Shown here piece by piece: positions 71 to 46,302 of a stretch of 64,000 bases of DNA. Made by a program: the position numbers and the translations under genes. The first letter of the stretch is position 1. Every line of letters begins with the position of its first letter. The notes beneath the pieces are model-generated. The model saw only the letters and a list, made by a program, of their open reading frames with translations. It did no database searches and was not told the DNA's origin. This DNA comes from a virus (lineage: Duplodnaviria > Caudoviricetes), in IMG/VR virus record IMGVR_UViG_3300025781_000011, positions 1,174-65,173 of that record; one strand, 5' to 3'.

Positions 71-1159
71 ATGCAATACGTACGTCAAAAACCATTAGCA
101 TCCACATTCTTTAAAGCAAGAGGCGGACCTGCAACTGTATTTGGAGCCATTCCCAGATACAAATACATGTTCTATGCTAATTTTGTAGCTAGTCAGGCAG
201 CATTGAATAGATATCCAGATTATTATAGATTGGGTAGTTGGGAAACGGGGGTTAGTTTTAAAATACATACGGTTGATAAACCACAAATTGAGCTGAATGT
301 ACAAGAATTAAACCAGTACAATAGAAAAAGATACGCATATACAAAAATAAATTATCACCCATTTACTATTCGACTTTACGACACAGTTGATAACATACCA
401 TTAGAAATGTGGCGAAGATATTTTACATTCTATTTTGGGGATAGTAGAACAAAAGGTACCAGTGCCACTGGTGCAACAACTGTTTATAATCAAATGGTTA
501 CAGATCCAAACTTTGCATACGATACAGGCTGGGGATTAAATCCTAGAGATGAACACTATAACTTTTTTGATAGAGTTGAAGTTTATGCTATATATGGCGG
601 ATACTATACTCAGATAAATTATATCAACCCAAAAATTACCAGAGTTGATTGGCAACAATATGATTCTAGTTCAAGTGAAATGGCTGATTTACAAATGACA
701 TTATCATATGAAGCTATTGAATATCTACCAAGTACCCCAATTACGGCAATACAACTAGCTCAGTTTGGATTTGATATTGAGGCAGCTACAGAAGTACCGG
801 GTGTTCCGGTTCCTAATCAGGACATTACTAGCTCTATATATAGCACTTTAGGCGGTTTACAATCCACTTTATTACCAACAGATTTAGCGTCTAGTATTAA
901 TTCTGCTTTTCAGATCGCTAATACCACATTAAATTTGTTTAATAATTCTCCTCTGGGAATAATTTCCCCTACTGCTGGTAAAATTGTCGGGCAAACAACA
1001 CAAGGTGTTCAAGCTGCAAATACACTATTTGGTTTAACAACAAATCCATCTATTCCCAGTAACTATCTTGGTACAGGATATTCATTTATAAACTCTTATA
1101 ATACCTCTGCTAGTTCAACCTTAAGTCCGTATGGATCATTTAACTTTGGAAGATTATAA
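71..1159 (+). CDS. Tail tube / baseplate tail-tube-initiator-like protein (T4 gp19/gp54-like)
   Basis: N-terminal 220 aa resemble the tube fold (VDKPQIEL..QELNQYNRKR...YHPFTIRLYD...MTLSYE); S/T/G-rich tail; preceded by TAAATA late motif. Confidence 0.55.
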   Translation: MQYVRQKPLASTFFKARGGPATVFGAIPRYKYMFYANFVASQAALNRYPDYYRLGSWETGVSFKIHTVDKPQIELNVQELNQYNRKRYAYTKINYHPFTIRLYDTVDNIPLEMWRRYFTFYFGDSRTKGTSATGATTVYNQMVTDPNFAYDTGWGLNPRDEHYNFFDRVEVYAIYGGYYTQINYINPKITRVDWQQYDSSSSEMADLQMTLSYEAIEYLPSTPITAIQLAQFGFDIEAATEVPGVPVPNQDITSSIYSTLGGLQSTLLPTDLASSINSAFQIANTTLNLFNNSPLGIISPTAGKIVGQTTQGVQAANTLFGLTTNPSIPSNYLGTGYSFINSYNTSASSTLSPYGSFNFGRL

Positions 1160-1644
1160 TGGCATCAAACGATATTGTAATTAATAATATTAAAAAACAA
1201 TTAGCTCTCAATGCAGGACAATTAAATATTTCCAGCACAAATGGTTCATATAGTTTTGTTGACACTACAAATAATACAACTCTTCCGGGTAGTGCTAATG
1301 CAAGTAATTATGTACTTTCTAATGTTCCATCAACTTATCAATCAGGACTTAAAGCAGAAGTATACAACTATGCAAAAGGTGTATTCGGTGGACAAACAGT
1401 ACCACCCGAGTTAGTAGAGAGTCTTAGTAGTTTAGCTACTTATTATGTCAGTCAAACAGGTGTAAGTGTACAATCATTATTTAAAAATGGTCAGTTACAA
1501 TCAAATTTTCTTGCAACTATAAACACATTCTTAAATGATAGCGTACAGTTCGGTTATCAAAGCCTTAATACTACACAACCATGGGTTAACAATCCCACAC
1601 TACACGGAAATATAGCCGCTGCATTACAATCATCTTTAAAGTGA
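1159..1644 (+). CDS. Hypothetical virion protein
   Basis: 161-aa ORF coupled to the upstream gene by a TAATG overlap; N/S/T-rich. Confidence 0.6.
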   Translation: MASNDIVINNIKKQLALNAGQLNISSTNGSYSFVDTTNNTTLPGSANASNYVLSNVPSTYQSGLKAEVYNYAKGVFGGQTVPPELVESLSSLATYYVSQTGVSVQSLFKNGQLQSNFLATINTFLNDSVQFGYQSLNTTQPWVNNPTLHGNIAAALQSSLK

Positions 1645-2664: not shown

Positions 2665-3471
2665 ATGAAGAGTTTTATACAATATCTAGAAGAGTCTGTT
2701 AAAGAAAATGTCTATGCTATAAAGTTTGCTATGCAGCCAACTGACGATCAGTTTGACACAGTTGAATCATTCTTAAAGAAACATGATTTGATCAGCATCA
2801 GCAAACCAGAACATGTTGAACATGACAAGATGGACTTTTATGATATACCTAATAAGAATATTTGGCAGATTAGAGCAGTTACTGGTATGCCACTTAGCCC
2901 ATACATTATAATGCAGCAATTAAAAGCTGTGCTTAACATACCAGAAGATTATATAGTTGTCAGAGGTGCTAACGAACCCGTAGAACTAGAATCAAATGAC
3001 ACTGCATTTGAACATGATATGGATGATATGGCTGCTGATAAGTCATTGATGCCTGCTGCTAGATTAAGCACAGACAGATTTTATAATGATGCAGAAGAAC
3101 CAATTCTAACTGACGTATTTGGTAATGACTACAATAAGAAATTGTTAGATTACCTAAGATCAGTTGCTGATGATAGACAAACAGATCATTACGAAGCACC
3201 TGCTCCATTATTCAGTTGGATTGACATGGACAAGGTCATGGATGAACAAGCAGTTGAATCACATGACTTCAATGAAAGATTTGATACACCTAAGCCTGTT
3301 AACAAAGGCGCAGGTAAAGATGTACCACCAGTTGATCCCATAAACCTAGGACATCATGGTAATTTTGATGATGGTGCAGCACAGAAAATTAAATTAATGA
3401 AAGACAGTAAAGGCAAGCGTGAGTCAGTCTCGGCTCCAAGAGCTAGTCTAAAAGCCGAGAAAGTGAGGTAA
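2665..3471 (+). CDS. Hypothetical head-associated protein
   Basis: Late motif CATAAATA and GGAG RBS; N-terminus MKSFIQYLEES resembles T4 capsid-targeting sequences. Confidence 0.6.
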   Translation: MKSFIQYLEESVKENVYAIKFAMQPTDDQFDTVESFLKKHDLISISKPEHVEHDKMDFYDIPNKNIWQIRAVTGMPLSPYIIMQQLKAVLNIPEDYIVVRGANEPVELESNDTAFEHDMDDMAADKSLMPAARLSTDRFYNDAEEPILTDVFGNDYNKKLLDYLRSVADDRQTDHYEAPAPLFSWIDMDKVMDEQAVESHDFNERFDTPKPVNKGAGKDVPPVDPINLGHHGNFDDGAAQKIKLMKDSKGKRESVSAPRASLKAEKVR

Positions 3472-3475
3472 TACC

Positions 3476-4669
3476 ATGGAAAATAAAGATCTAATAAGAA
3501 AGTCACTTGATATTATCAACGAGTCTATGCTAGAAGATGGTAAAGAATGGAAGCGTACAAAAGCTCAACAAGATTTTGATCATGACCTAGACGGTGTTCC
3601 GCATGATCCAGAACATGATGACGAGGATCCAGATGCTGACCTAAAGCATAAAGAACGCAAGTACGACAGCGACGAAGAAGAAGATTTCGATGAGTCTGTT
3701 GAGGACGGTGACGAAGACGATGACGATTTAGAAGCTAGCGGATTTCCAAAAGATCCAAAGTACTATGACGAAAAAGGTCGTTATAAGTGGATGGAACCAG
3801 AAGATTTAGATCGTGATGAGGAAGAAGATCGCGAACACGACGACGAAGAGGATTTAGAAGAGGACGATGTCAAGGAAGATGCACCAAAAGCAAAATCTGC
3901 ACCAAAAGCTGATTCCGCTGGTACCAGTTTCCCAGGCATGGGTGAAGGTATTTACGAAGGCGACGAACTTGATGAAGGTATAAACATCACACTCGACGGT
4001 CCGGAAGCTGACGAGTTTGTTGCTAGATTAATGCAACTATCTGGTCAACCTGCTCCTGTTATGCCACATGATGCTCCAATTCAAGCAGTACCTGTGGATG
4101 TAGCTCCAGTTGCACCTGATATGGATGGTGCACCTGCTCCTGACATGGACGGACCGGTTGCACAAGCAGTTGATCAACCAGAAGTTGATGCTGACCACTT
4201 TGTAGCAGACGACAGCGGAACATGTGAAGTATGTCATATGCCAGAATCAATGTGCGAATGCCCAATGACTACACAAACATCGGGTCCATTATTAGGACAT
4301 GACGGTGTTACGATGGAAGAACATGCTGAATATGATCACGGACACTGTGAAGTCGACGATGAGGGTAAAGAAGTAGATCCAGAAACTTACATGTATAAGA
4401 TACCTACCCCTGCACAGAAAATGGTCAAGGGCATGATGGGCGACAATCCAATGGTTGAAGAATCAATGGAACGTTACAATAGAATCGTAAATGATTATGT
4501 AAAATTCCTAGGCGAAAGCGACATACCAAATGAAGATGGTGTAGCAAGTCCGTTAACAGCGGCTGATCGTCAAGAATTTGATAAGGATCCGCATGCAGGC
4601 CAAGAACCAAAAACAGACGGCAGCATGAGTCCAATGAGTCAAATTGATAGACAGGATGTAATGAAATAA
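3476..4669 (+). CDS. Highly acidic hypothetical protein (possible prohead core/scaffold-type)
   Basis: 397 aa with long D/E tracts; GAGG RBS. Confidence 0.6.
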   Translation: MENKDLIRKSLDIINESMLEDGKEWKRTKAQQDFDHDLDGVPHDPEHDDEDPDADLKHKERKYDSDEEEDFDESVEDGDEDDDDLEASGFPKDPKYYDEKGRYKWMEPEDLDRDEEEDREHDDEEDLEEDDVKEDAPKAKSAPKADSAGTSFPGMGEGIYEGDELDEGINITLDGPEADEFVARLMQLSGQPAPVMPHDAPIQAVPVDVAPVAPDMDGAPAPDMDGPVAQAVDQPEVDADHFVADDSGTCEVCHMPESMCECPMTTQTSGPLLGHDGVTMEEHAEYDHGHCEVDDEGKEVDPETYMYKIPTPAQKMVKGMMGDNPMVEESMERYNRIVNDYVKFLGESDIPNEDGVASPLTAADRQEFDKDPHAGQEPKTDGSMSPMSQIDRQDVMK

Positions 4670-13501: not shown

Positions 13502-14959
13502 ATGATAAAATCATGCAACATAATTATTGAAGACGAGTGCAACATAAAATTAGAAAATCTAGATCTATCTACACGAAAAGCGTGTGCCAATTCAGTCAAG
13601 TACTTCTTGCCTCATGCACGTTATAGCCCGGCATTCAAATTAGGCAGATGGGATGGAACTCAGAGTTTTTGTACACTTGGAGGCAGGACTTACTTAAATC
13701 TCTTGGACAAGATCCTGCCTATCCTAGAAGATAACAACTTTGAATTTGAAATTGAAGATCGTAGACAACGATATGAGTTTAACCTTGATCAGATCGACGA
13801 TCAATACCTAGCTGATATCACATGGCCAGAAGGTCATCGTATGGCAGGAGAACCTATTATTATACGCGACTATCAAGTAGCTGCTATAAATGAATGCGTT
13901 AATAATTTACAAGGGATAACGATTGCTCCTACTAGTGCAGGAAAGACAATCGTAACTTCTTGCCTGAGCAAACTTGCTGAAAAATATGGAAGAACTATTG
14001 TTATTGTTCCCAATAAGAATCTAGTACAACAAACAGAAGAAGACTACCGTAATATCGGATTAGACGTTGGTGTATTGTACGGTGATCGTAAAGAGTATAA
14101 TCGCACTCATACCATATGCACCTGGCAGAGTTTGAATGTATTAGATAAGAAAAACAAAGATGCACTTGATGATGATCAGCTAAAAGTATTTCTTGACAAC
14201 CTTGTTGCTGTTATATGTGATGAAGTGCATATGGTTAAGAATACAGGTGTACTACATACGCTATTAACAACTACATTTGCTAATGTGCCAATTCGCTGGG
14301 GATTAACTGGTACTATTCCAGAAGAAGAATACAACCAAGTTAGTTTGTACAGTGCCATTGGACCTATAATTGGTAAACTTACTGCTAAAGAATTACAAGA
14401 CGCAGGACATTTAGCACAGTGCCATGTTAATATTCTTCAAACTCAAGAAACATTGGTATATAATAACTATCAAGAAGAACTAAAGTACCTTGTTACCAAT
14501 AAAGAACGACTCGAGTGGCTAGCTACTAAGGTCAAGGAAATCGCTAAAACAGGTAATACTCTAGTCCTGATTGATAGAATTGAAACTGGACAAATTTTAA
14601 ACGAATTATTACCAGATGCTATATTCATTAGCGGTAAAATGAAAGCTACTGAGCGTAGAGAACATTATAAAGAAATTAACTTTGATAATAATGCGATTAT
14701 GATTGCAACTTATGGAACCACTTCAACAGGCATAAATATTAGTAGACTCTTTAATTTAGTTTTATTAGAACCGGGTAAGAGCTTTGTTAGAGTAATTCAA
14801 AGTATTGGTCGTGGTTTACGTAAAGCAGATGACAAAGAAGCAGTAGATATTTACGATGTGAGTAGCAAATGCAAATTCAGCAACAGACACCAATTGAAAC
14901 GACGGAAATTTTACACAGAAGTGCAATATCCGTTCACAATGAAAAAAATAACATACTGA
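13502..14959 (+). CDS. uvsW: SF2 DNA helicase UvsW-like
   Basis: RDYQ, APTSAGKT, DEVH, GLTGT, QSIGRGLR. Confidence 0.92.
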   Translation: MIKSCNIIIEDECNIKLENLDLSTRKACANSVKYFLPHARYSPAFKLGRWDGTQSFCTLGGRTYLNLLDKILPILEDNNFEFEIEDRRQRYEFNLDQIDDQYLADITWPEGHRMAGEPIIIRDYQVAAINECVNNLQGITIAPTSAGKTIVTSCLSKLAEKYGRTIVIVPNKNLVQQTEEDYRNIGLDVGVLYGDRKEYNRTHTICTWQSLNVLDKKNKDALDDDQLKVFLDNLVAVICDEVHMVKNTGVLHTLLTTTFANVPIRWGLTGTIPEEEYNQVSLYSAIGPIIGKLTAKELQDAGHLAQCHVNILQTQETLVYNNYQEELKYLVTNKERLEWLATKVKEIAKTGNTLVLIDRIETGQILNELLPDAIFISGKMKATERREHYKEINFDNNAIMIATYGTTSTGINISRLFNLVLLEPGKSFVRVIQSIGRGLRKADDKEAVDIYDVSSKCKFSNRHQLKRRKFYTEVQYPFTMKKITY

Positions 14960-16785
14960 AGCATATTGACGATCTTTTTGAAAAATACAAAAACAATGTT
15001 AAAGTAGCTAATTTGGTAATAAAACAATTAAAAGAATCAAATTATTGGGAAGAAATAACCTCAAAAATTGATTGTAATAAATTAGTTACAAGTAAAGATA
15101 TCGAAAAACTTTATGTATATGTCAATGGGTATAAACCCGAATGTCCCTTTAATAAACATATAAAATTTATAGGATATGCTGTAGGATATAGACGATGCGG
15201 TCCTGCTAGCAGGTGCAAATGTACAGAACAATCTGTATCCGATAATGTTTCGCGATCTAAACTTTCCTATTCTAATGATACAAAAAGTTCTATAAATGAA
15301 AAAAGAAAACAAACAAACATCGAACGATATGGTATTGATAATCCATTTAAAGACCAAGATAAGGTAAAAGAGTCGTATATAGCAAAATTGGGAGTCGATC
15401 ATCCTATGCATCTCGATTCAACCAAGGATAAAATCAAATCAACAAACATAGAAAGATATGGTGTCGATCATCCTATGCATCTCGATTCAACCAAGGATAA
15501 AATCAAATCAACAAACATAGAAAGATATGGTGTCGATCATCCTATGCATCTTGATTCGATCAAGGATAAAATCAAATCAACAAACATAGAAAGATATGGC
15601 GTCGATCATCCTATGCATCTTGATTCGATCAAGGATAAAATCAAATCAACAAGTTTAGAGAAATACGGTGTCGACAATCCGAGCAAAAGTGAAATAATCA
15701 AACAACAAATAAGAACAGCACAGCTTGATACCTATTATAGTAAATTATGTTCTAGATTAGAAATTCATAAAATAAGGCCCAACGACCAAGAGCCATTTAA
15801 TTTTACTTCAAACCATTTTAAATGGATATGCGATACGTGTAATAGTCACTTTGATGGTACTGCAATAAACGGCAGAATTCCTAGATGTCCTACATGCTAT
15901 CCAGCACATATTAGTTCTGGTCAACAAGAAATAGTAGATTACATCAAAGGTATAGTAGGAGTTGATCCTTTATTAATAAATGACAGAACTGTACTAGCAA
16001 ATAAAAACGATAAAAGAAAAAATAAAGAATTAGATATCGTAATAAAGGACAAAAATCTAGCAATAGAGTATTGCGGATTAAGATATCACACAGAAGGATT
16101 TGGCAATAAAAATAAATTTTATCATTATAATAAATGGTACGAATGTAACAATAAAAATATTCAATTAATAACAATTTTCTCAGATGATTGGTACGATAAT
16201 AAGTTGCTGATAAAAAGTATGATAAACGTTAGATTGGGAAAATCTGCAAAAATCCCTGCAAGAAAAACTATTGTTAGTGTCATAGACAATTATCAAGCAG
16301 AGGAATTTTTTGAAAATAATCATATCAGCGGTTATATAAAAAGTTCTTATAATATTGGGTTATTTTATGAAAATAAACTGGTAATGTGCATGAGTTTTTC
16401 TAAATCTAGATATAATAAATCATTTGAATTTGAAATAACTAGAATGGCTGCTATACGTAATACCGTTGTAGTAGGTGGTGCATCAAAACTATTCTCTTAT
16501 TTTGTTAAAAATAAAAATCCCAATTCTGTAATAAGTTATTGTGATCTTAGTTACGGTACAGGAAAAAGTTATTTAAAAATGGGATTTGCTTCTTTTGGAA
16601 AACCAACAATAGGATATCAATATGTTGAATTAAATAAACCCAATTGCAGATATGATAGATTGCAATTTCAAAAACATAAACTGGGAGAAACAAACGGTTT
16701 AACTGAAAAACAATTCATGTTGTCAAACGGTTTTGATGTTATATGGGATTGCGGGCATCAAAAATATATCTGGAAAAAGTCATGA
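14869..16785 (+). CDS. Hef-like / Vsr-type homing endonuclease with repeat domain, Zn ribbon and C-terminal GNAT-like module
   Basis: ERYGVD.P repeats, CxxC..CPxC, ELDI....NLAIEYCG..YH, ..GGASKLF...ISYCD; true start uncertain. Confidence 0.75.
   Translation: MQIQQQTPIETTEILHRSAISVHNEKNNILKHIDDLFEKYKNNVKVANLVIKQLKESNYWEEITSKIDCNKLVTSKDIEKLYVYVNGYKPECPFNKHIKFIGYAVGYRRCGPASRCKCTEQSVSDNVSRSKLSYSNDTKSSINEKRKQTNIERYGIDNPFKDQDKVKESYIAKLGVDHPMHLDSTKDKIKSTNIERYGVDHPMHLDSTKDKIKSTNIERYGVDHPMHLDSIKDKIKSTNIERYGVDHPMHLDSIKDKIKSTSLEKYGVDNPSKSEIIKQQIRTAQLDTYYSKLCSRLEIHKIRPNDQEPFNFTSNHFKWICDTCNSHFDGTAINGRIPRCPTCYPAHISSGQQEIVDYIKGIVGVDPLLINDRTVLANKNDKRKNKELDIVIKDKNLAIEYCGLRYHTEGFGNKNKFYHYNKWYECNNKNIQLITIFSDDWYDNKLLIKSMINVRLGKSAKIPARKTIVSVIDNYQAEEFFENNHISGYIKSSYNIGLFYENKLVMCMSFSKSRYNKSFEFEITRMAAIRNTVVVGGASKLFSYFVKNKNPNSVISYCDLSYGTGKSYLKMGFASFGKPTIGYQYVELNKPNCRYDRLQFQKHKLGETNGLTEKQFMLSNGFDVIWDCGHQKYIWKKS
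15394..15680 (+). repeat. 69-bp tandem repeat (four copies plus a degenerate fifth) encoding VDHPMHLDS(T/I)KDKIKSTNIERYG
   Basis: Copies begin at 15394, 15463, 15532 and 15601. Confidence 0.95.
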
Positions 16786-16815: not shown

Positions 16816-16854
16816 GTTCAGTACCCTTTTACCATTGATAAAATTACATATTAA
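16816..16854 (+). pseudogene. Stranded second copy of the uvsW 3' end (VQYPFTIDKITY*)
   Basis: 10 of 12 residues plus the stop match the uvsW terminus VQYPFTMKKITY* at 14921-14959. Confidence 0.8.
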
Positions 16855-35950: not shown

Positions 35951-36255
35951 AAACATTTGTCACCAAAGCCGTTAACAGTTTCGTCGATTATATTAAAACA
36001 GATTGGGCTAGTAGCAAAACTAGAACCATTGCCGAAGTTTACAGCTGGATTGCAAGTGCAGTCAGCGGTATAATAGTTTCAAGCACAGTACCGAATCCGC
36101 CGTGGGAAGTATTTTATCCACTGTGGCTAAGCGCACTATTCTGCATGATGTTCTGTTCATACAGCAGAGGTAGCTTTGGTATGTTAGCGTTTAATTTGAG
36201 TTTGTTTTGTATTGATATAACTGGTTACATTAGAATCCTACTAGCAAAGCATTGA
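35947..36255 (+). CDS. Small membrane protein
   Basis: About three hydrophobic segments. Confidence 0.65.
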   Translation: MKTFVTKAVNSFVDYIKTDWASSKTRTIAEVYSWIASAVSGIIVSSTVPNPPWEVFYPLWLSALFCMMFCSYSRGSFGMLAFNLSLFCIDITGYIRILLAKH

Positions 36256-36258
36256 AAC

Positions 36259-36948
36259 ATGGGCGTTAAACTTAATCCACTTTATGAATATAAGAAACTT
36301 GGTAGACACGACGGCGATGGAAACGGTCGAGTCTATGTAGATGAAATTGGTAATAAAATTCCATCAGTTACGACAATTTTGTCGAAAACAAAAGACATTA
36401 CACATTTGATTGCTTGGCGCAAGCGTGTCGGCGAAGATAAAGCCAAACAGATCACCGAAGAAAGTGCCGGACTTGGCACAACTTTTCATAGTCACTTAGA
36501 ATCATACCTTTTGGGACAAGAACGTCCGGGCGGTAATAACTATGGCCGACTTATGGCTAAACGTATGGCTGACACCGTTATTCAAAATGGTTTTATAGAT
36601 GTTGATGAGATTTGGGGAGTTGAATCTCATTTATATTATGACACAATATGGGCAGGTACCACTGATTGTGTTGGCATTTATAAAGGTAAACCAGCTATTA
36701 TCGACTTTAAGACAACAAATAGACCAAAAAAGATTCAATGGATTGAAGATTATTTTTTACAATTATGTGCTTATGCAATGGCACATGATAACACATTTGG
36801 AACAAATATAGATAGAGGTGTTATTTTTATGTGCAGCAGAGATTGTGAGTATCAACAGTTTGAAATTGGTGGATATGAAATGGAAGAATTTAAATTAAAA
36901 TGGTGTCAACGTGTTGACGAATATTATAATAAATTTGTTTTTAAGTAA
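36259..36948 (+). CDS. PD-(D/E)XK exonuclease (RecB/MGME1-like)
   Basis: PSVTTILS, GT.FH..LE, AGTTD, IIDFKT, YFLQLCAYA. Confidence 0.85.
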   Translation: MGVKLNPLYEYKKLGRHDGDGNGRVYVDEIGNKIPSVTTILSKTKDITHLIAWRKRVGEDKAKQITEESAGLGTTFHSHLESYLLGQERPGGNNYGRLMAKRMADTVIQNGFIDVDEIWGVESHLYYDTIWAGTTDCVGIYKGKPAIIDFKTTNRPKKIQWIEDYFLQLCAYAMAHDNTFGTNIDRGVIFMCSRDCEYQQFEIGGYEMEEFKLKWCQRVDEYYNKFVFK

Positions 36949-36967
36949 AAGTATAATAAAATTATGT

Positions 36968-38029
36968 ATGGAAACAGAAACAGATTATACACCTTTTATT
37001 AATAACAAATATACTGACTTATATTTTAAAATAATTGAAAAATCAAAAAATAGAATCATTAATGATTATGTTGAGGTACATCATATCATTCCAGATTGCT
37101 TTTACATTAAAAGATCAAGAAAAGGTCAGAAAGGATGCTTACACGGAGATCCGAATAATAGAATAAATTTAGTTAAACTTCAGGCAAGAGAACATTATAT
37201 ATGCCATTGGTTATTAACCAAAATGGTACCAAATGGACCCATGTACTACAAAATGGAATTAGCATTTGGAAAACTTAAACAAAAAGGAATAGGTCAGAAA
37301 AGGAATTAGAATTCCAGACAGTATGAACGATTAAAATTGGCCACGATAAACGGATTAAAAGGACAACGATGGTACAATAATGGTACAGAAGAACAATTAT
37401 CACATACCCCAATTCAAGGCTGGCAGCTAGGTTGTTTATCTAACGCTTTTAATTGGTACAATAATGGATTGGTTGAAATAACAGCTCAAATATGTCCAAA
37501 TGGTTTTAAGCCGGGAAGATTAAACAGTCCAACTTCAGGAACATTATGGTTCAATAATGGTGTAATTGAATGTATGAACGTTAACTGTCCAGAAGGTTTT
37601 ACGCCCGGTAGACTAGCAAGTAAAATCAAAAATAAAAAGTGGTATAATAACGGATTTGAAGAAGTTCTAAGTGAATCTGTACCAATAGGATGGACACTTG
37701 GGAAAATTAATATAATAGGAAATAACAAAGATAAAAAACTATATAATAACGGAATTGAACAAATATTATCAGTTGATAAACCAGACGGGTTTGTAGAAGG
37801 AGCACTTAAAGGAACTTACGGTAAATCGCGTGGTAAAAAATGGTACACAAATGGTATAAACCAAACATTAGCATACGAATCGCCGAATGGGTGGTACTCA
37901 GGCAGGTGTAAAGGCGGAGCAGTTGGATTGAAATGGTATAATAACGGAAATCTTAATATTATGGCCAAAGAGCAGCCTAACGGATTTATTTCAGGAAAAG
38001 TAAAAAGAAAGCCAGATAGACTGGAGTAA
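36968..38029 (+). pseudogene. HNH (MobE-like) homing endonuclease with seven WYNNG repeats, interrupted by one in-frame TAG
   Basis: ORFs 36911-37309 and 37337-38029 are in the same frame, separated only by TAG 37307-37309; EVHHIIP...NLVKL..REH..CH.LL motif. Confidence 0.75.
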
Positions 38030-38072
38030 CAGAGTATCTGACTATTATACTAAGCATGTATTCAAGGACTGA
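38022..38072 (+). pseudogene. Stranded second copy of the exonuclease 3' end (WSNRVSDYYTKHVFKD*)
   Basis: Aligns without gaps to WCQRVDEYYNKFVFK* at 36901-36948. Confidence 0.75.
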
Positions 38073-38089
38073 TACACTATAAATACCTT

Positions 38090-38593
38090 ATGCGTATCAG
38101 TGAACTTTTAGAAGCCGTTGGAGCCAACCTCTTATACCACAGTGTATACAGTTTTTCTATATTAGAAAAGATCCTACAAAGTGGTAAGATTCTCCCTCGT
38201 GTAGCCACACATGGTTCTGAAATGGGTAGAACTAATCCTGTTATTAGTCTAACTCGCGATCAATTCTATCGCTTCCCTAATTATGAAGGTGCTGCTCAAT
38301 TTGCTATAGATCGTGATGCTTTAAGGAGAGCAGGCATAAAAGTACAACCATTTGGGTGGTCACCTTATTACACGAGCACTCCTAAAGGTAAGGATCCAGA
38401 AAAGGAAGAAGAAGTCTTAGTACCAATCCCTCTTAAACAACCTTTCATAAGTCACATAGAAATCAATCCTGATATCCCACAAGACAAGATACTGCCTAGC
38501 ATTATTAAACTTGCTGCTGAAAGAGGAATACCAATCAGGAGCATGAAATCATATCAAGGTCAGCGTAAAGTATCTAAAGGTTTTACCAACTAG
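38090..38593 (+). CDS. Putative ADP-ribosyltransferase-fold late protein
   Basis: LYH...IL.SG.I...ISLTR...EKEEEV arrangement; TATAAATA at 38078; MRISELLE start. Confidence 0.5.
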   Translation: MRISELLEAVGANLLYHSVYSFSILEKILQSGKILPRVATHGSEMGRTNPVISLTRDQFYRFPNYEGAAQFAIDRDALRRAGIKVQPFGWSPYYTSTPKGKDPEKEEEVLVPIPLKQPFISHIEINPDIPQDKILPSIIKLAAERGIPIRSMKSYQGQRKVSKGFTN

Positions 38594-38841
38594 TCCCATT
38601 TCAATAACCAAAATGTAAAAGCGTCTCTATTTTCAAATTCTAATTGATTCCAAACAACACCCGAATATGCTGGGTGTTTATGTACTTTGATATTATATTC
38701 TTTTTTCATTTCATCTATAAGTTGTTCGTAATATTCTAATCCAACGATACTTTTACGAGTTATACTATTTGCTATATGTCCAAGGCACTTGGTGAAAGGC
38801 TTCTCATATTGTTCAATATCAACTATATAGGACATTATCAA
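38590..38841 (-). CDS. Hypothetical protein
   Basis: 83 aa ending LEFENRDAFTFWLLKW. Confidence 0.6.
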   Translation of the reverse strand: MIMSYIVDIEQYEKPFTKCLGHIANSITRKSIVGLEYYEQLIDEMKKEYNIKVHKHPAYSGVVWNQLEFENRDAFTFWLLKWD

Positions 38842-42581: not shown

Positions 42582-44243
42582 ATGATGTCATCGATTCGAG
42601 TTGTAAAACGTAGCGGAGCAAAAGTGCCGTTAGATGTTACTAAATGGCAAAATCAGATCACCAAGGTCTGCACGGGCATAGCTGACGTTAGTCAATCAAT
42701 GATAGAAATCAAAGCACAACCACATTTTTATGATGGTATCAGCACCAGAGAAATAGATGAAATAACCCTACGTGCTATAGTTGATCTAATCGATATAGAA
42801 TCTAATCCAGATATCGGACATACCAATTATCAATTTGTAGCCGGCAATCAACGACTTGGTATGTTGCGTAAGGATGTCTACGGTCAGTATAATCCGCCTC
42901 ACATATATGAAATTGTTAAACATAATGTGGAATTAGGATTATATACCCGAGATTTATTAGATTGGTACACAGTTGATGATTGGAATCGAATGAACGATAT
43001 CCTTGATCATACCAAAGATGAAGCGTACAGCTATGCAGCAATTGAACAATTAATTGAAAAATACTTGATACGTAATCGTGCCACTAAACAGATATACGAA
43101 ACACCGCAGATTAGGTATATTGTAGCAGCCGCAACAGTGTTTCATAGAGAAGAACCTAGTCAAGCTAGAATGAAATATATTAAAGAATACTATAATGCTG
43201 CCTCAGACGGATTGTTTACTCTAGCTACACCTGTGCTAGCAGGATTAGGAACACCAACTAAACAGTTCAGTAGTTGTGTTCTCATACGTGCTGACGATAA
43301 TCTAGACAGTATTTTTGCTGCTGGCGAAATGATGGCCAAGTATGCAAGTAAACGAGCTGGTATCGGGTTAGAAATTGGTAGACTACGTCCCCTTGGTAGT
43401 CCAATTAGAGGCGGGGAGATTACACATACAGGTATGATTCCGTTCCTAAAGAAGTGGTTTGGTGATCTACGTAGCTGTTCACAAGGTGGTATTAGGAATT
43501 CCAGCTGTACTGTTTACTTCCCAATATGGCACTATCAATTTGATGATTTGATTGTATTAAAAAATAATCAAGGTACTGAAGAAACTCGTGTACGTCATAT
43601 GGATTATGCAGTAGTATTGAACGCATTCTTTTGGCGTCGCTTTAAGAACAAAGAAAATATCACATTCTTTGATCCGAACGAAGTACCAGATTTATTTGAA
43701 GCATTTTATGGAGATACGGAACTATTTGAAAACCTTTATGTTAAGTATGAAAAACGTAAAGATATACGCACTAAGACTATGAGTGCAGAAGAAGTATTTA
43801 AGGGCGGTATTTTAAAAGAACGTACTGATACTGGTCGAATTTATTTGATGTATACTGATAATGTTCAGAATCAAGGACCGTTTGATCCCAAGGTACATCC
43901 AATTTACCAATCAAATCTCTGTTGTATTACAGGCGATACTCGCGTAACCTTTTTACATAAAAGCGGGAAAATTGAAACAATGTCGGTTGCTAGTGCAGTA
44001 GAAAGATTTGAATTAGGCGGCCTTACTGAATCAAAGATTAAAAGTTTTAAGAATGACAAAGTAATATGGGCTGATATTTCAGGTGCAATGAAAACTAAAA
44101 CAGTAACAGAACTTTATGAGATCACAGATGAAAGTGGTAAGATTATCCAATGCACTGCTGATCATTTAATTTATACCAAAAATAGAGGTTATGTTAGAGC
44201 GGATGAACTTGTAGAAACGGACGAGTTATGTATTGAAAACTGA
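42582..44243 (+). CDS. nrdA: Ribonucleotide reductase class Ia alpha, N-terminal part fused to an N-intein
   Basis: ATP cone VVKRSG, LATP..AG, QFSSC, CSQGG.R, extein ends YQSNLC. Confidence 0.93.
   Translation: MMSSIRVVKRSGAKVPLDVTKWQNQITKVCTGIADVSQSMIEIKAQPHFYDGISTREIDEITLRAIVDLIDIESNPDIGHTNYQFVAGNQRLGMLRKDVYGQYNPPHIYEIVKHNVELGLYTRDLLDWYTVDDWNRMNDILDHTKDEAYSYAAIEQLIEKYLIRNRATKQIYETPQIRYIVAAATVFHREEPSQARMKYIKEYYNAASDGLFTLATPVLAGLGTPTKQFSSCVLIRADDNLDSIFAAGEMMAKYASKRAGIGLEIGRLRPLGSPIRGGEITHTGMIPFLKKWFGDLRSCSQGGIRNSSCTVYFPIWHYQFDDLIVLKNNQGTEETRVRHMDYAVVLNAFFWRRFKNKENITFFDPNEVPDLFEAFYGDTELFENLYVKYEKRKDIRTKTMSAEEVFKGGILKERTDTGRIYLMYTDNVQNQGPFDPKVHPIYQSNLCCITGDTRVTFLHKSGKIETMSVASAVERFELGGLTESKIKSFKNDKVIWADISGAMKTKTVTELYEITDESGKIIQCTADHLIYTKNRGYVRADELVETDELCIEN
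43923..44240 (+). other. Split intein, N-fragment (106 aa)
   Basis: Block A CITGDT; block B CTADH.IYT.NRGYV.A.EL...DEL, then a stop. Confidence 0.9.
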
Positions 44244-44250
44244 TTGCTAA

Positions 44251-44281
44251 CATAAATACATATGGAGAAATTCATATGTAT
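44251..44281 (+). promoter_or_regulatory. Late promoter overlapping an RBS/AUG-sequestering hairpin
   Basis: CATAAATA; stem ATACATATGGA-GAAA-TTCATATGTAT. Confidence 0.7.
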
Positions 44282-45217
44282 AAAAAGTTGTATAAAAATA
44301 TTATTGATAATGCTAGAAAAGAGAATAGAATGAAGAATCAAGGAATATATTATGAAGTACATCATATTATTCCAGATTTTCTATTTAAAAACCGGAGGCG
44401 ACCCGGACCTAAGGGACATTTAGATGGGAACCCAAACAGTTCTGATAACTTGGTTTTTCTAACATTTTCTGAACATTTAATAGCACATTATTATTTGTAT
44501 GAAATATATAAAGATTCAAGATATGCATATTCAGCTGGCTCAGCATTGCAATTCTTTTTTGTAAAAGCCACAGGGAATCATAAAAGACAGAAAAATTTAT
44601 CAGAGATTGATAGTAATTTTTTGAAAGAGATGGAACACTTGCGTATGTTGGGAATCGAGAGTATTAGTAAAGCAAAAACTGGAAAAATGCCGGTTGTGGA
44701 TGCACTAACTCGGAAAAAAATAGGTTCTGTGCCAATAGATCATCCGAAAGTATTATCCGGCGAATGGATTCACCATTGTAAAGGTCTTCCAGCAAAAACA
44801 GCAAATAGAAAGTCACAAGTAGGTTCAAATAACACTAATTATAAAGAGCTAACCCTTGAAAGACGAGAAAGATTATTAAATTGTGTAGTTAATTCTTGTC
44901 AAGACAGGTATTTAAAATTGTCACTACTTACTTCTGCAATAAAAAAAGAATTTTCAGAGTTTAAAAAAATATCATTAGCTTGGATTTGGAATAATTATGA
45001 TTCTGTGAATGATTTATTAAATGAAGTTAACTCAGTAAAAGGTACTCAAATTAAATATGATTCATATCATAGAAGCAATGCACAAAGAAAATTAGCATCT
45101 GCGCATTCTTCAAAACATCGTTGGTACAATAATGGAGTGAAAAATATAAAAGTCACAAACGAAGCAGAATTTTGTAAACATAATCCAGATTTTAAATTAG
45201 GAAAATTAAAAATATGA
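44276..45217 (+). CDS. Free-standing HNH (MobE-like) homing endonuclease inside the fractured nrdA
   Basis: YEVHHIIP...NLV.LT..EH..AH..L; C-terminal WYNNG. Confidence 0.88.
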   Translation: MYKKLYKNIIDNARKENRMKNQGIYYEVHHIIPDFLFKNRRRPGPKGHLDGNPNSSDNLVFLTFSEHLIAHYYLYEIYKDSRYAYSAGSALQFFFVKATGNHKRQKNLSEIDSNFLKEMEHLRMLGIESISKAKTGKMPVVDALTRKKIGSVPIDHPKVLSGEWIHHCKGLPAKTANRKSQVGSNNTNYKELTLERRERLLNCVVNSCQDRYLKLSLLTSAIKKEFSEFKKISLAWIWNNYDSVNDLLNEVNSVKGTQIKYDSYHRSNAQRKLASAHSSKHRWYNNGVKNIKVTNEAEFCKHNPDFKLGKLKI

Positions 45218-45315
45218 TCAAAATTAAAAAAATCAAAGTTAAACAAACTGACGTATACGACATTTCTGTTCCAGAAACAGAATGTTTTTTTGCTAACGAT
45301 ATATTGATTCATAAT
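45214..45315 (+). other. Split intein, C-fragment (34 aa)
   Basis: MIKIKKIK...VYDISV....FFANDILIHN followed by Cys+1. Confidence 0.9.
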
Positions 45316-46302
45316 TGTGAGATCACACTACCTAACAAGCCGTTCAAGCGTTTAGATGATGCAGAAGGTCGTATTTCCCTATGTACACTTGGATCAATTA
45401 ACTGGGGTGCATTCCGCAATCCAGAAGACATGAGACGTGCTTGTAGAATTCTGCTTAGAAGCTTGAATAACATTTTAGATTATCAGGACTTCTTGAGTAT
45501 CCAATCTAAATTATCAAATGACGAGATACGTCCGATTGGCATAGGTGTCACTAATCTAGCATACTTCTTAGCCAAGAGAGGATTGAAGTATGGTGATCCA
45601 GAATGCTTAGCAGAAGTAAAGACATTTATAGAGCATCAGGCATTTTATTTAACTGAAGCAACAGTAGAGCTGGCAAAGGAACGCGGTCCTTGTTTAGATA
45701 GTGCTAAGACACGCTATGGCCAAGGCACGTTTCCTTGGGAGTTAAGAGCAAATGGTGTTAATGAGCTTACAGACTTTACACCAGAACTTGACTGGGAATC
45801 ATTAAGAAATGAAATAAAACAACACGGAGTACGTAATGCTACGCTGCTAGCAGTTGCTCCTGTTGAATCAAGTTCAGTTTGTATTAATTCAACAAATGGT
45901 ATAGAAATGCCAATGAGTTTGATTGCTACTAAAGAAAGCAAGGCTGCATCACTTACGCAAGTGGTTCCGGAATATCACAGACTCAAGAACAAGTATCAGT
46001 TGATGTGGGATCAAACAGACTGTATCGGATATTTGAAAACTGCTGCGGTGTTAGCTGCATATGTTGATCAGGCTATTTCAGTGAATACGTTTTATTCGCC
46101 TAAACATTTTCCAGATCGCAAAGTCCCAACCACATTGATAGCTAAAAATTTAATGCAGGCACATAAATGGGGATTGAAGACCTTGTATTATAGCCTAATG
46201 GATAAATCTGGGTCAAAAGTTGATGACCTTGATCTAATTAAAGAACTGGCACCGATAGACTACAGTGACGATGATTCAGACTGCGAAGCTTGTAAGCTAT
46301 AA
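45214..46302 (+). CDS. nrdA: C-intein fused to the ribonucleotide reductase alpha C-terminal part
   Basis: CEI, LCTLGSIN, RPIGIG, RNATL.A.AP.ESSS, KTLYY, C-terminal CEAC. Confidence 0.93.
   Translation: MIKIKKIKVKQTDVYDISVPETECFFANDILIHNCEITLPNKPFKRLDDAEGRISLCTLGSINWGAFRNPEDMRRACRILLRSLNNILDYQDFLSIQSKLSNDEIRPIGIGVTNLAYFLAKRGLKYGDPECLAEVKTFIEHQAFYLTEATVELAKERGPCLDSAKTRYGQGTFPWELRANGVNELTDFTPELDWESLRNEIKQHGVRNATLLAVAPVESSSVCINSTNGIEMPMSLIATKESKAASLTQVVPEYHRLKNKYQLMWDQTDCIGYLKTAAVLAAYVDQAISVNTFYSPKHFPDRKVPTTLIAKNLMQAHKWGLKTLYYSLMDKSGSKVDDLDLIKELAPIDYSDDDSDCEACKL

Follow-up and report, generated by a model that had tools for sequence, protein, structure and literature searches.

A duplicated exonuclease gene end flanks a broken HNH endonuclease gene in part of a very large phage genome

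SegF, SegG and MobE are free-standing endonucleases that bring about intronless homing in T-even phages. In ICP1 phages, nuclease genes are found at exchange boundaries, and broken endonuclease genes are mentioned in the accessible part of the report (PMC10448857). The MobA element of T4, found in topoisomerase genes 39/60, includes a HomR stretch of ∼16 aa according to the available portion of the preprint (bioRxiv 10.1101/2022.08.31.505936). Mobile open reading frames (ORFs) form "gene hybrids" in fungal mitochondria, and the accessible text of PMC3630166 lists atp6 of Allomyces macrogynus, named there as the first such case, atp6, atp9, cox2 and nad3 of Glomus sp., atp9 of Rhizopus and cox2 of Mortierella. 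In these, as far as that text extends, an inserted C-terminal stretch in phase with the gene is followed by the endonuclease ORF and then by the native C-terminal stretch. The two fungal copies are 64-81% identical in DNA and near-identical in protein, with the native copy nearer to relatives. Here, an arrangement of this kind is described in phage DNA, where a second version of the last codons of an exonuclease gene lies behind an HNH homing-endonuclease gene. The DNA examined (the window, 64,000 nt) is bases 1174-65173 of the 65,173-base IMG/VR virus record IMGVR_UViG_3300025781_000011. The completeness of the record is rated at ∼15%, and the window is therefore a piece of a very large phage. 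The runs containing the stretch are freshwater metagenomes (11 rows, none of the 11 recorded as RNA).

Two copies of the exonuclease gene end

The exonuclease gene finishes with a tail that is in phase with the gene body (the current tail), and the second version (the stranded tail) is located at the end of the endonuclease gene (Table 1). The initial annotation read the exonuclease ending and 38022-38072 as ungapped counterparts with W, RV, YY, K and VFK identical, and all of this was confirmed in the sequence. The identical residues W, R, V, Y, Y, K, V, F and K amount to 9 of 15, and 29 of 45 nucleotides are shared. The stranded tail has an in-frame stop 9 codons upstream and is without a start codon, and is therefore not a gene. 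The endonuclease ATG is found 19 nt past the exonuclease stop in a different frame. The claim that the endonuclease ORF takes its last codons and stop from the stranded tail in another frame is also correct. The frame ends AGA CTG GAG TAA, the TAA (38027-38029) falls inside codons 2-3 of the stranded tail, and the last 8 nt of the gene overlap codons 1-3.

Table 1. Location of the features described in the text (positions in the window).
Feature	Position	Strand	Description
MGME1-like PD-(D/E)XK exonuclease gene (host gene)	36259..36948	+	229 aa, own TAA stop
Current exonuclease tail, WCQRVDEYYNKFVFK and stop	36901..36948	+	In phase with gene body; 15 codons and stop
Spacer from exonuclease stop to endonuclease start	36949..36967	+	AT-rich, 19 nt, 10.5% guanine+cytosine (GC)
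Free-standing HNH homing-endonuclease gene, MobE-like	36968..38029	+	353 codons in one frame, one internal TAG
In-frame TAG breaking the endonuclease gene	37307..37309	+	Frame continuous on both sides; homologues align straight through
Repeats in the C-part of the endonuclease (WYNNG...P.GF/W..G)	37370..38000	+	∼7 repeats of ∼31 aa each; direct-repeat families spaced 84-102 nt
Stranded exonuclease tail, WSNRVSDYYTKHVFKD and TGA	38022..38072	+	Outside every ORF
Downstream gene (right flank)	38090..38593	+	167 aa, function unknown; no Pfam or PHROG match
uvsW-like superfamily 2 (SF2) helicase gene	13502..14959		ResIII/DEAD/Helicase_C; ends in VQYPFTMKKITY and stop
638-codon ORF behind the uvsW-like helicase gene	14869..16785		DUF7487 repeats
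Stranded uvsW-like tail, VQYPFTIDKITY and stop	16816-16854

A six-frame scan of the window with the 14-residue tail (127,918 positions; mean -16.7, standard deviation 8.3) gave a score of 43 at 38025, followed by 28. Comparison of the tails of ORFs of at least 80 aa with their own downstream 3 kb (289,461 comparisons within the window) gave 54 for the exonuclease pair, 47 for a second pair belonging to a uvsW-like helicase gene, and 34 for the next. The similarity on which the initial annotation built is thus significant against these controls. The same tail scan in 114 other loci (644,023 bases; 2,725,155 comparisons; L001, L002, L030 and L031 left out) found no pair scoring at least 40. Of these 114 loci, 45 are centred on related endonuclease genes, and several represent the same contigs from two collections and hence are not all independent. 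As the scan scores are far above every control, a chance resemblance of the two tails is excluded. The motif W..[RK]V..YY is found at the C-terminus in all 21 viral loci read (21 of 26, the match falling short of the C-terminus in the other 5) and in most of 41 metagenome loci. Because this motif ends the proteins of the family, both copies are homologous, family-typical exonuclease tails.

The two copies diverged under purifying selection as working gene ends, in different genomes. In simulations with 16 random substitutions in 45 nt, at least 9 of 15 residues were kept without a stop in 23-133 of 20,000 trials, and the observed similarity score was reached in 4-40 of 20,000. Random change therefore gives the observed conservation in 0.1-0.7% of trials, which points to divergence as working gene ends, and this in turn places the divergence in different genomes and not in a duplication in place followed by drift. 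Of the identical residues, 8 have degenerate codons, and five of these are coded differently in the two copies. Identities at the first, second and third codon positions are 10, 12 and 7 of 15, with too few sites for significance alone.

The host gene product matches the PHROG family phrog_298 'exonuclease' (2.4e-57) and Pfam PDDEXK_1 (1.8e-4, at the family cut-off), and a profile built from 48 homologues matches human MGME1 chains at 7.7e-18. The AlphaFold2 (AF2) model has a predicted local distance difference test (pLDDT) value of 92.9, and its top Foldseek match is MGME1 (template modelling scores 0.72/0.83). The terminal helix, residues 206-227, has pLDDT blocks of 89-97 in this model, and the current tail makes up most of it. 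As modelled, the insertion site at W215 splits this helix mid-way. The current tail retains the family-conserved residues W215, R218, V219 and Y223, each at least 90% conserved in 48 sequences. Truncation at W215 would remove a conserved structural element and would be expected to harm the enzyme. The current tail is one residue shorter than those of the 10 closest full-length homologues, being without the final D seen in all 10, and shares 9-12 of its 15 residues with them. The cultured nearest kin of the gene are in the jumbo phages Yersinia fHe-Yen9-04, Pseudomonas PA5oct and Xanthomonas XaC1 (∼68% nucleotide identity over ∼200 nt).

Within an exonuclease clade of ∼50% identity in the metagenome loci L097-L113, a common WL.KVEEYY is followed by varied ends (TTGLQGYKQLLTQ, KLGR, NSLR and ALSR before the stop). 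Among close relatives, genes of the exonuclease family are mosaic at the extreme 3′ end.

Polarity of the two copies and origin of the insert

Comparison with relatives makes it probable that the older, native-type end is represented by the stranded copy, the current tail having probably arrived with the insert. The 90% cluster of the exonuclease contains 8 proteins, and six of these together with P0002, P0003, P0004 and P0017 were compared as the 10 closest full-length homologues. Each of them has a tail of 16 residues that, like the stranded copy, ends in FKD; they share 11-14 of 16 residues with the stranded copy, and 9 of the 10 are nearer to it than to the current copy. The initial annotation expected relatives to carry the downstream version; this holds at the protein level, but empty-site DNA was not recovered. 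P0245, the closest by body (87.4%), shares 14 of 16 residues with the stranded copy versus 10 of 15 with the current tail, and 14 of 16 is what 87% body identity predicts for the stranded copy. Among the 120 best homologues, 60 are nearer to the stranded copy, 24 are nearer to the current one and 36 are tied. The GC content of the current tail (26.7%) is nearer to that of the AT-rich 5′ part of the insert (28%) than to that of the gene body (36.3%), which weakly favours the same polarity; that of the stranded copy is 35.4%.

The origin considered likely is that a MobE-like HNH gene was copied, with a substitute tail, into the last helix-coding stretch of the exonuclease gene at W215. The inserted block would consist of the substitute tail (15 codons and stop), the 19-nt spacer and the endonuclease gene. 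In a mixed infection, a genome lacking the endonuclease gene would have been cut by the enzyme within or next to the conserved DNA that codes for the tail. The left break end would have been repaired by homology with the donor exonuclease gene, copying the tail, stop codon and endonuclease gene of the donor, and the right end would have been joined without homology to the intact tail of the recipient. The exonuclease would thereby stay full length with neither intron nor intein, and the earlier tail would be left untranslated behind the insert. With just 64% of bases common to the two tails, no intact target would be left in the occupied allele, the 36% difference having destroyed it, and the diverged tails would be poor substrates for recombination deleting the insert. 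The endonuclease gene would later have decayed by one nonsense codon, leaving a recent fossil.

Several points weigh against this origin. P0243 (85.4% in the body) shares 12 of 15 residues with the current copy and 11 of 16 with the stranded copy. At two positions where all seven closest-cluster members have C and Y, the stranded copy carries S2 and H12. As it is also equally close to the 73%-identical P0017 (14 of 16) and to P0245, it could have come from a donor by co-conversion. Four of the close homologues are near-identical to each other, so that these sequences do not count as independent, and the polarity comparison is of protein sequence over just 15-16 residues. No donor of the current tail has been sampled, none of the listed homologues being above 11 of 15, and a search for it with residues 190-229 found P0001 only. 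Neither endonuclease-free sibling DNA nor a second locus with the same cassette was recovered from the viral, metagenome and genome contigs searched. The endonuclease gene also carries a stop, so that no activity can be assumed.

The closest exonuclease homologues are known as 228- or 230-aa proteins only. The 26 exonuclease loci from viral contigs (best 72%) and the 41 from metagenome contigs (best 72%) are too distant, and neither the endonuclease nor the downstream gene is present in any of them. Searches with the N-part and the C-part of the endonuclease gave 24 and 21 loci, respectively, at no more than 54% identity, and an exonuclease gene is present in only one, L055. Degenerate DNA patterns for the tails had no matches in viral contigs and none in metagenome contigs; the second pattern should have matched some JGI genes, for which the metagenome collection is evidently incomplete. 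Genome contigs gave 64 matches to the tail patterns, none of them a relative. In fHe-Yen9-04, PA5oct and XaC1, the next gene begins 2-31 nt past the exonuclease stop with no insert, and this spacing shows the ancestral layout at the family level only. No contig of four runs (X6-X9) skips 36901-38021, though missing cover or a missing joint is no evidence of absence. A joint from 37227 to 38111 in X8 comes from a different phage sharing the HNH motif and the downstream gene.

Two assemblies break near the left junction. An ENA contig of 1221 nt (P0246), corresponding to 36259-36903 of the window, matches the exonuclease to L212 except for one residue, continues with 'NH' and ends, breaking off or diverging precisely at this junction. 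A Logan contig of X6 starts at 36872, 30 nt before the left junction. These breaks may be alternative alleles or mere assembly ends.

The reverse polarity, in which the current tail is native and the stranded copy came as the 3′ flank of the endonuclease gene from an already-split donor, is regarded as unlikely. It would fit the P0243 tail, at 12 of 15 like the current copy, and the 'WC' of the current copy, which is common to all seven closest-cluster members, whereas the 'WS' and 'H12' of the stranded copy are like those of the more distant P0003 and P0017. Homing from an occupied donor would, moreover, use the stranded tail as its right homology arm. However, the 10 closest full-length homologues all end in KD before the stop, as the stranded copy does, and 9 of them are nearer to it, and the GC content of the current tail fits the insert. 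An earlier tail replacement in the donor would still be required, which changes the history but not the mechanism. It is very unlikely that the insertion doubled ∼45 nt of its target in place and that the copies then drifted in this genome. Direct repeats around inserts are a common outcome of illegitimate insertion, and the duplicated stretch is short and begins exactly at the junction, but random change reaches the protein conservation seen here in no more than 0.7% of trials. The untranslated copy is, furthermore, intact and 14 of 16 like a relative, so that the selected copy would be the one that had changed most. The tails have also diverged so far that they are not picked up as a repeat in the DNA, while the 1062-nt endonuclease gene has only one disabling change.

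Endonucleases in phage genes usually sit in introns or inteins, and a split-intein arrangement is found 5 kb away in nrdA, so removal of the insert as a group I intron or intein, or by ribosomal bypass, with the downstream copy as the real end, has to be weighed. The endonuclease gene nevertheless appears not to be housed in an intron or intein. The exonuclease ORF is closed by TAA before the insert, which counts against both kinds of housing, and the upstream copy is a complete conserved tail that an intron would not need. In a search of 36000-38600 with 4227 Rfam families, none reached threshold, and the one sub-threshold match was to snoTBR5 (19 bits, cut-off 44, E 0.27). The stop 9 codons upstream, in frame with the stranded copy, is a further obstacle, and no intein-like residues were noticed at the junctions, although no dedicated intein scan was run. 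Removal of the insert by any of these routes is thus highly improbable. As for an assembly artefact or a chance resemblance, the window is a metagenome-assembled fragment and contigs break near the left junction in two assemblies. Apart from the scan controls, which oppose chance, the exonuclease and the endonuclease N-part each recur in exactly the same form on 9 contigs, which come from JGI, Logan and ENA and reach 305,602 bases in length. One contig of 1269 nt, from a run not flagged as a source, covers 36872-38140 including both junctions with 0 differences, and almost no credence can be given to either explanation. Insertion of the HNH gene with a substitute tail is the favoured origin.

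Endonuclease gene, right flank and other elements of the window

The N-part of the endonuclease matches phrog_655 'homing endonuclease' (3.1e-22) and the C-part matches phrog_10820 (8.2e-16). The HNH motif is present, with H38, H39, N67, H76 and H80 unchanged across an alignment of 12 sequences (the window and 11 relatives, hand-chosen as 12 of 24 loci). Pfam HNH was matched in 4 of the 12 (best 4.7e-5) and NUMOD3 in 6, and the 113-aa N-part of the window itself matched no Pfam family and no PDB sequence. The best annotated matches in tblastn are MobE homing endonucleases of Sinorhizobium phages (38.9%). The WYNNG repeats matched no Pfam family; because HNH homing endonucleases have a modular build, the C-part containing them is presumed to be a DNA-binding module. 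Promoter-like sites were uninformative (11, versus 11.6 ± 3.7 in shuffles).

The endonuclease gene appears as two ORFs in the ORF listing, and the TAG that breaks it is not mentioned in the initial annotation. TAG terminates 8 of the 51 ORFs of at least 150 aa in the window, and only the endonuclease TAG opens a long extension (239 codons). Recoding of TAG was considered and rejected, as TAG is an ordinary stop here. No tRNA gene is present in the window. A 353-aa endonuclease recorded for a 1269-nt Logan contig (P0249) equals a read-through of 36968-38026 with Q at the TAG. It is probably a gene call that takes TAG as Q and not an intact allele, because a contig of this same length shows 0 differences when aligned to the window, though the Q could still be a real CAG variant. 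With its endonuclease gene broken, the locus is a fossil and not an active element.

The sole close homologue of the downstream gene (89%) is in another viral contig (locus L032, contig G001), a 95-kb record of different neighbourhood that has no exonuclease gene, upstream or elsewhere. Two more HNH-type ORFs, 692-1492 (+) and 3098-3814 (-), are present in the L032 neighbourhood, and one of them bears W(W/Y)NNG repeats, as does the endonuclease of the window. In L055 (2998-4630), a 347-kb viral contig from a distant jumbo-phage relative, a 293-aa HNH gene with 39% identity in the N-part is directly upstream of the exonuclease gene. It sits between that gene and a homologue of the 764-aa structural protein of the window, and no gene end is duplicated.

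The uvsW-like helicase gene is the second case in the window. Its two tail copies are identical at 11 of 12 first, 12 of 12 second and 2 of 12 third codon positions, an even clearer sign of divergence under selection than that at the exonuclease gene. Its polarity is left undecided by relatives, as the stranded copy is the nearer one for 14 and the current copy for 13 of 95 homologues, with 68 ties (those of 484 or 485 aa out of 119; the 24 of other lengths were dropped). Four helicase homologues, P0189 and P0193 (849 aa), P0199 (788 aa) and P0226 (737 aa), are 250-360 residues longer, and two of the longer proteins carry Pfam PF14528, a LAGLIDADG family, in a precomputed list. This suggests that intein-type inserts occur in the same helicase of other phages.

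In the nrdA region (42582-46302), the large subunit of ribonucleotide reductase is encoded in two ORFs, 42582..44243 and 45214..46302. Their inner ends resemble a split intein (CITGDTRV and ILIHNC), the blocks being recognised by eye. An intact 313-aa HNH paralogue (44276..45217), 39% identical to the endonuclease at the exonuclease locus, lies between the nrdA halves. The window fragment is heavily colonised by such elements.

The initial annotation went further and proposed a general route into gene ends that is free of splicing. No intron was detected at the exonuclease locus, which agrees with the splicing-free part, but generality in phages is not demonstrated, there being two cases in one window and none in the 114 other loci. 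That a substitute gene end and an endonuclease gene together make up a self-contained mobile cassette of jumbo phages is a possibility, though a rather doubtful one. If it were so, the recoded tail would keep the gene whole, remove the endonuclease target and block loss of the insert by recombination, and free-standing nucleases of unrelated families could colonise coding sequence with neither intron nor intein. The two cases in a 64-kb window would then be the earliest noticed examples of a class that is widespread in phages but unannotated.

Comparison with known systems

A search of the full-text literature, with subscription journals outside its coverage, found no account from phages of an endonuclease gene accompanied by a duplicated or replaced gene end. 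A spare gene end would be a third way, besides introns or inteins and gene splitting, for an endonuclease gene to reside inside an essential-type gene and leave it intact. Short orphan peptides behind endonuclease genes can be read as datable scars of horizontal transfer, and DNA-metabolism genes of phages may have chimeric 3′ ends, the tails of the exonuclease family being visibly mosaic. The junction also offers a testable guess at the endonuclease target.

In intronless homing of T-even and ICP1 phages, a free-standing endonuclease gene adjoins a conserved DNA-metabolism gene, as at the exonuclease locus, and inactivated copies are common. Spread by break repair with co-conversion of flanks is shared with the origin proposed here. 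However, those endonuclease genes lie between genes, and the accessible part of PMC10448857 describes no duplicated gene end. The 'fractured genes' of PMC2677866, in the portion available, likewise have a free-standing endonuclease gene inside a phage DNA-metabolism gene, which is the layout of nrdA in the window. There the halves are joined by protein trans-splicing, whereas the exonuclease has a substitute gene end and no splicing.

The T4 MobA element, as far as the available text of the preprint describes it, is also a phage HNH element that carries a short host-homologous stretch diverged in DNA, and its endonuclease is often a pseudogene. It differs in having lost the native stretch, in dividing the host gene between two ORFs that have gained extra termini, and in needing a 50-nt bypass. 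The exonuclease is encoded in one ORF that requires no bypass, and a native-type stretch persists at 38022-38072.

The gene hybrids of fungal mitochondria, as set out in the accessible text of PMC3630166, share more of the arrangement. In both, an endonuclease ORF lies in the 3′ part of a gene, with an in-phase substitute C-terminal stretch ahead of it and the native one stranded behind. Both combine low DNA identity between the copies (64-81% in fungi, 64% here) with high protein similarity, and in both the copy behind the ORF is nearer to relatives. The host here is a jumbo-phage genome and not mitochondrial DNA, and the endonuclease is of the HNH family and not LAGLIDADG or GIY-YIG. The endonuclease ORF of the phage runs in a frame of its own up to its own stop, in contrast to in-phase fusion of some of the fungal ORFs. 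The replacement in the phage gene amounts to only 15 codons, the nuclease gene is broken, and this case is known from sequence. The kind of footprint is therefore already established in fungal mitochondria, and what is new is the phage host and the HNH family, not the principle.

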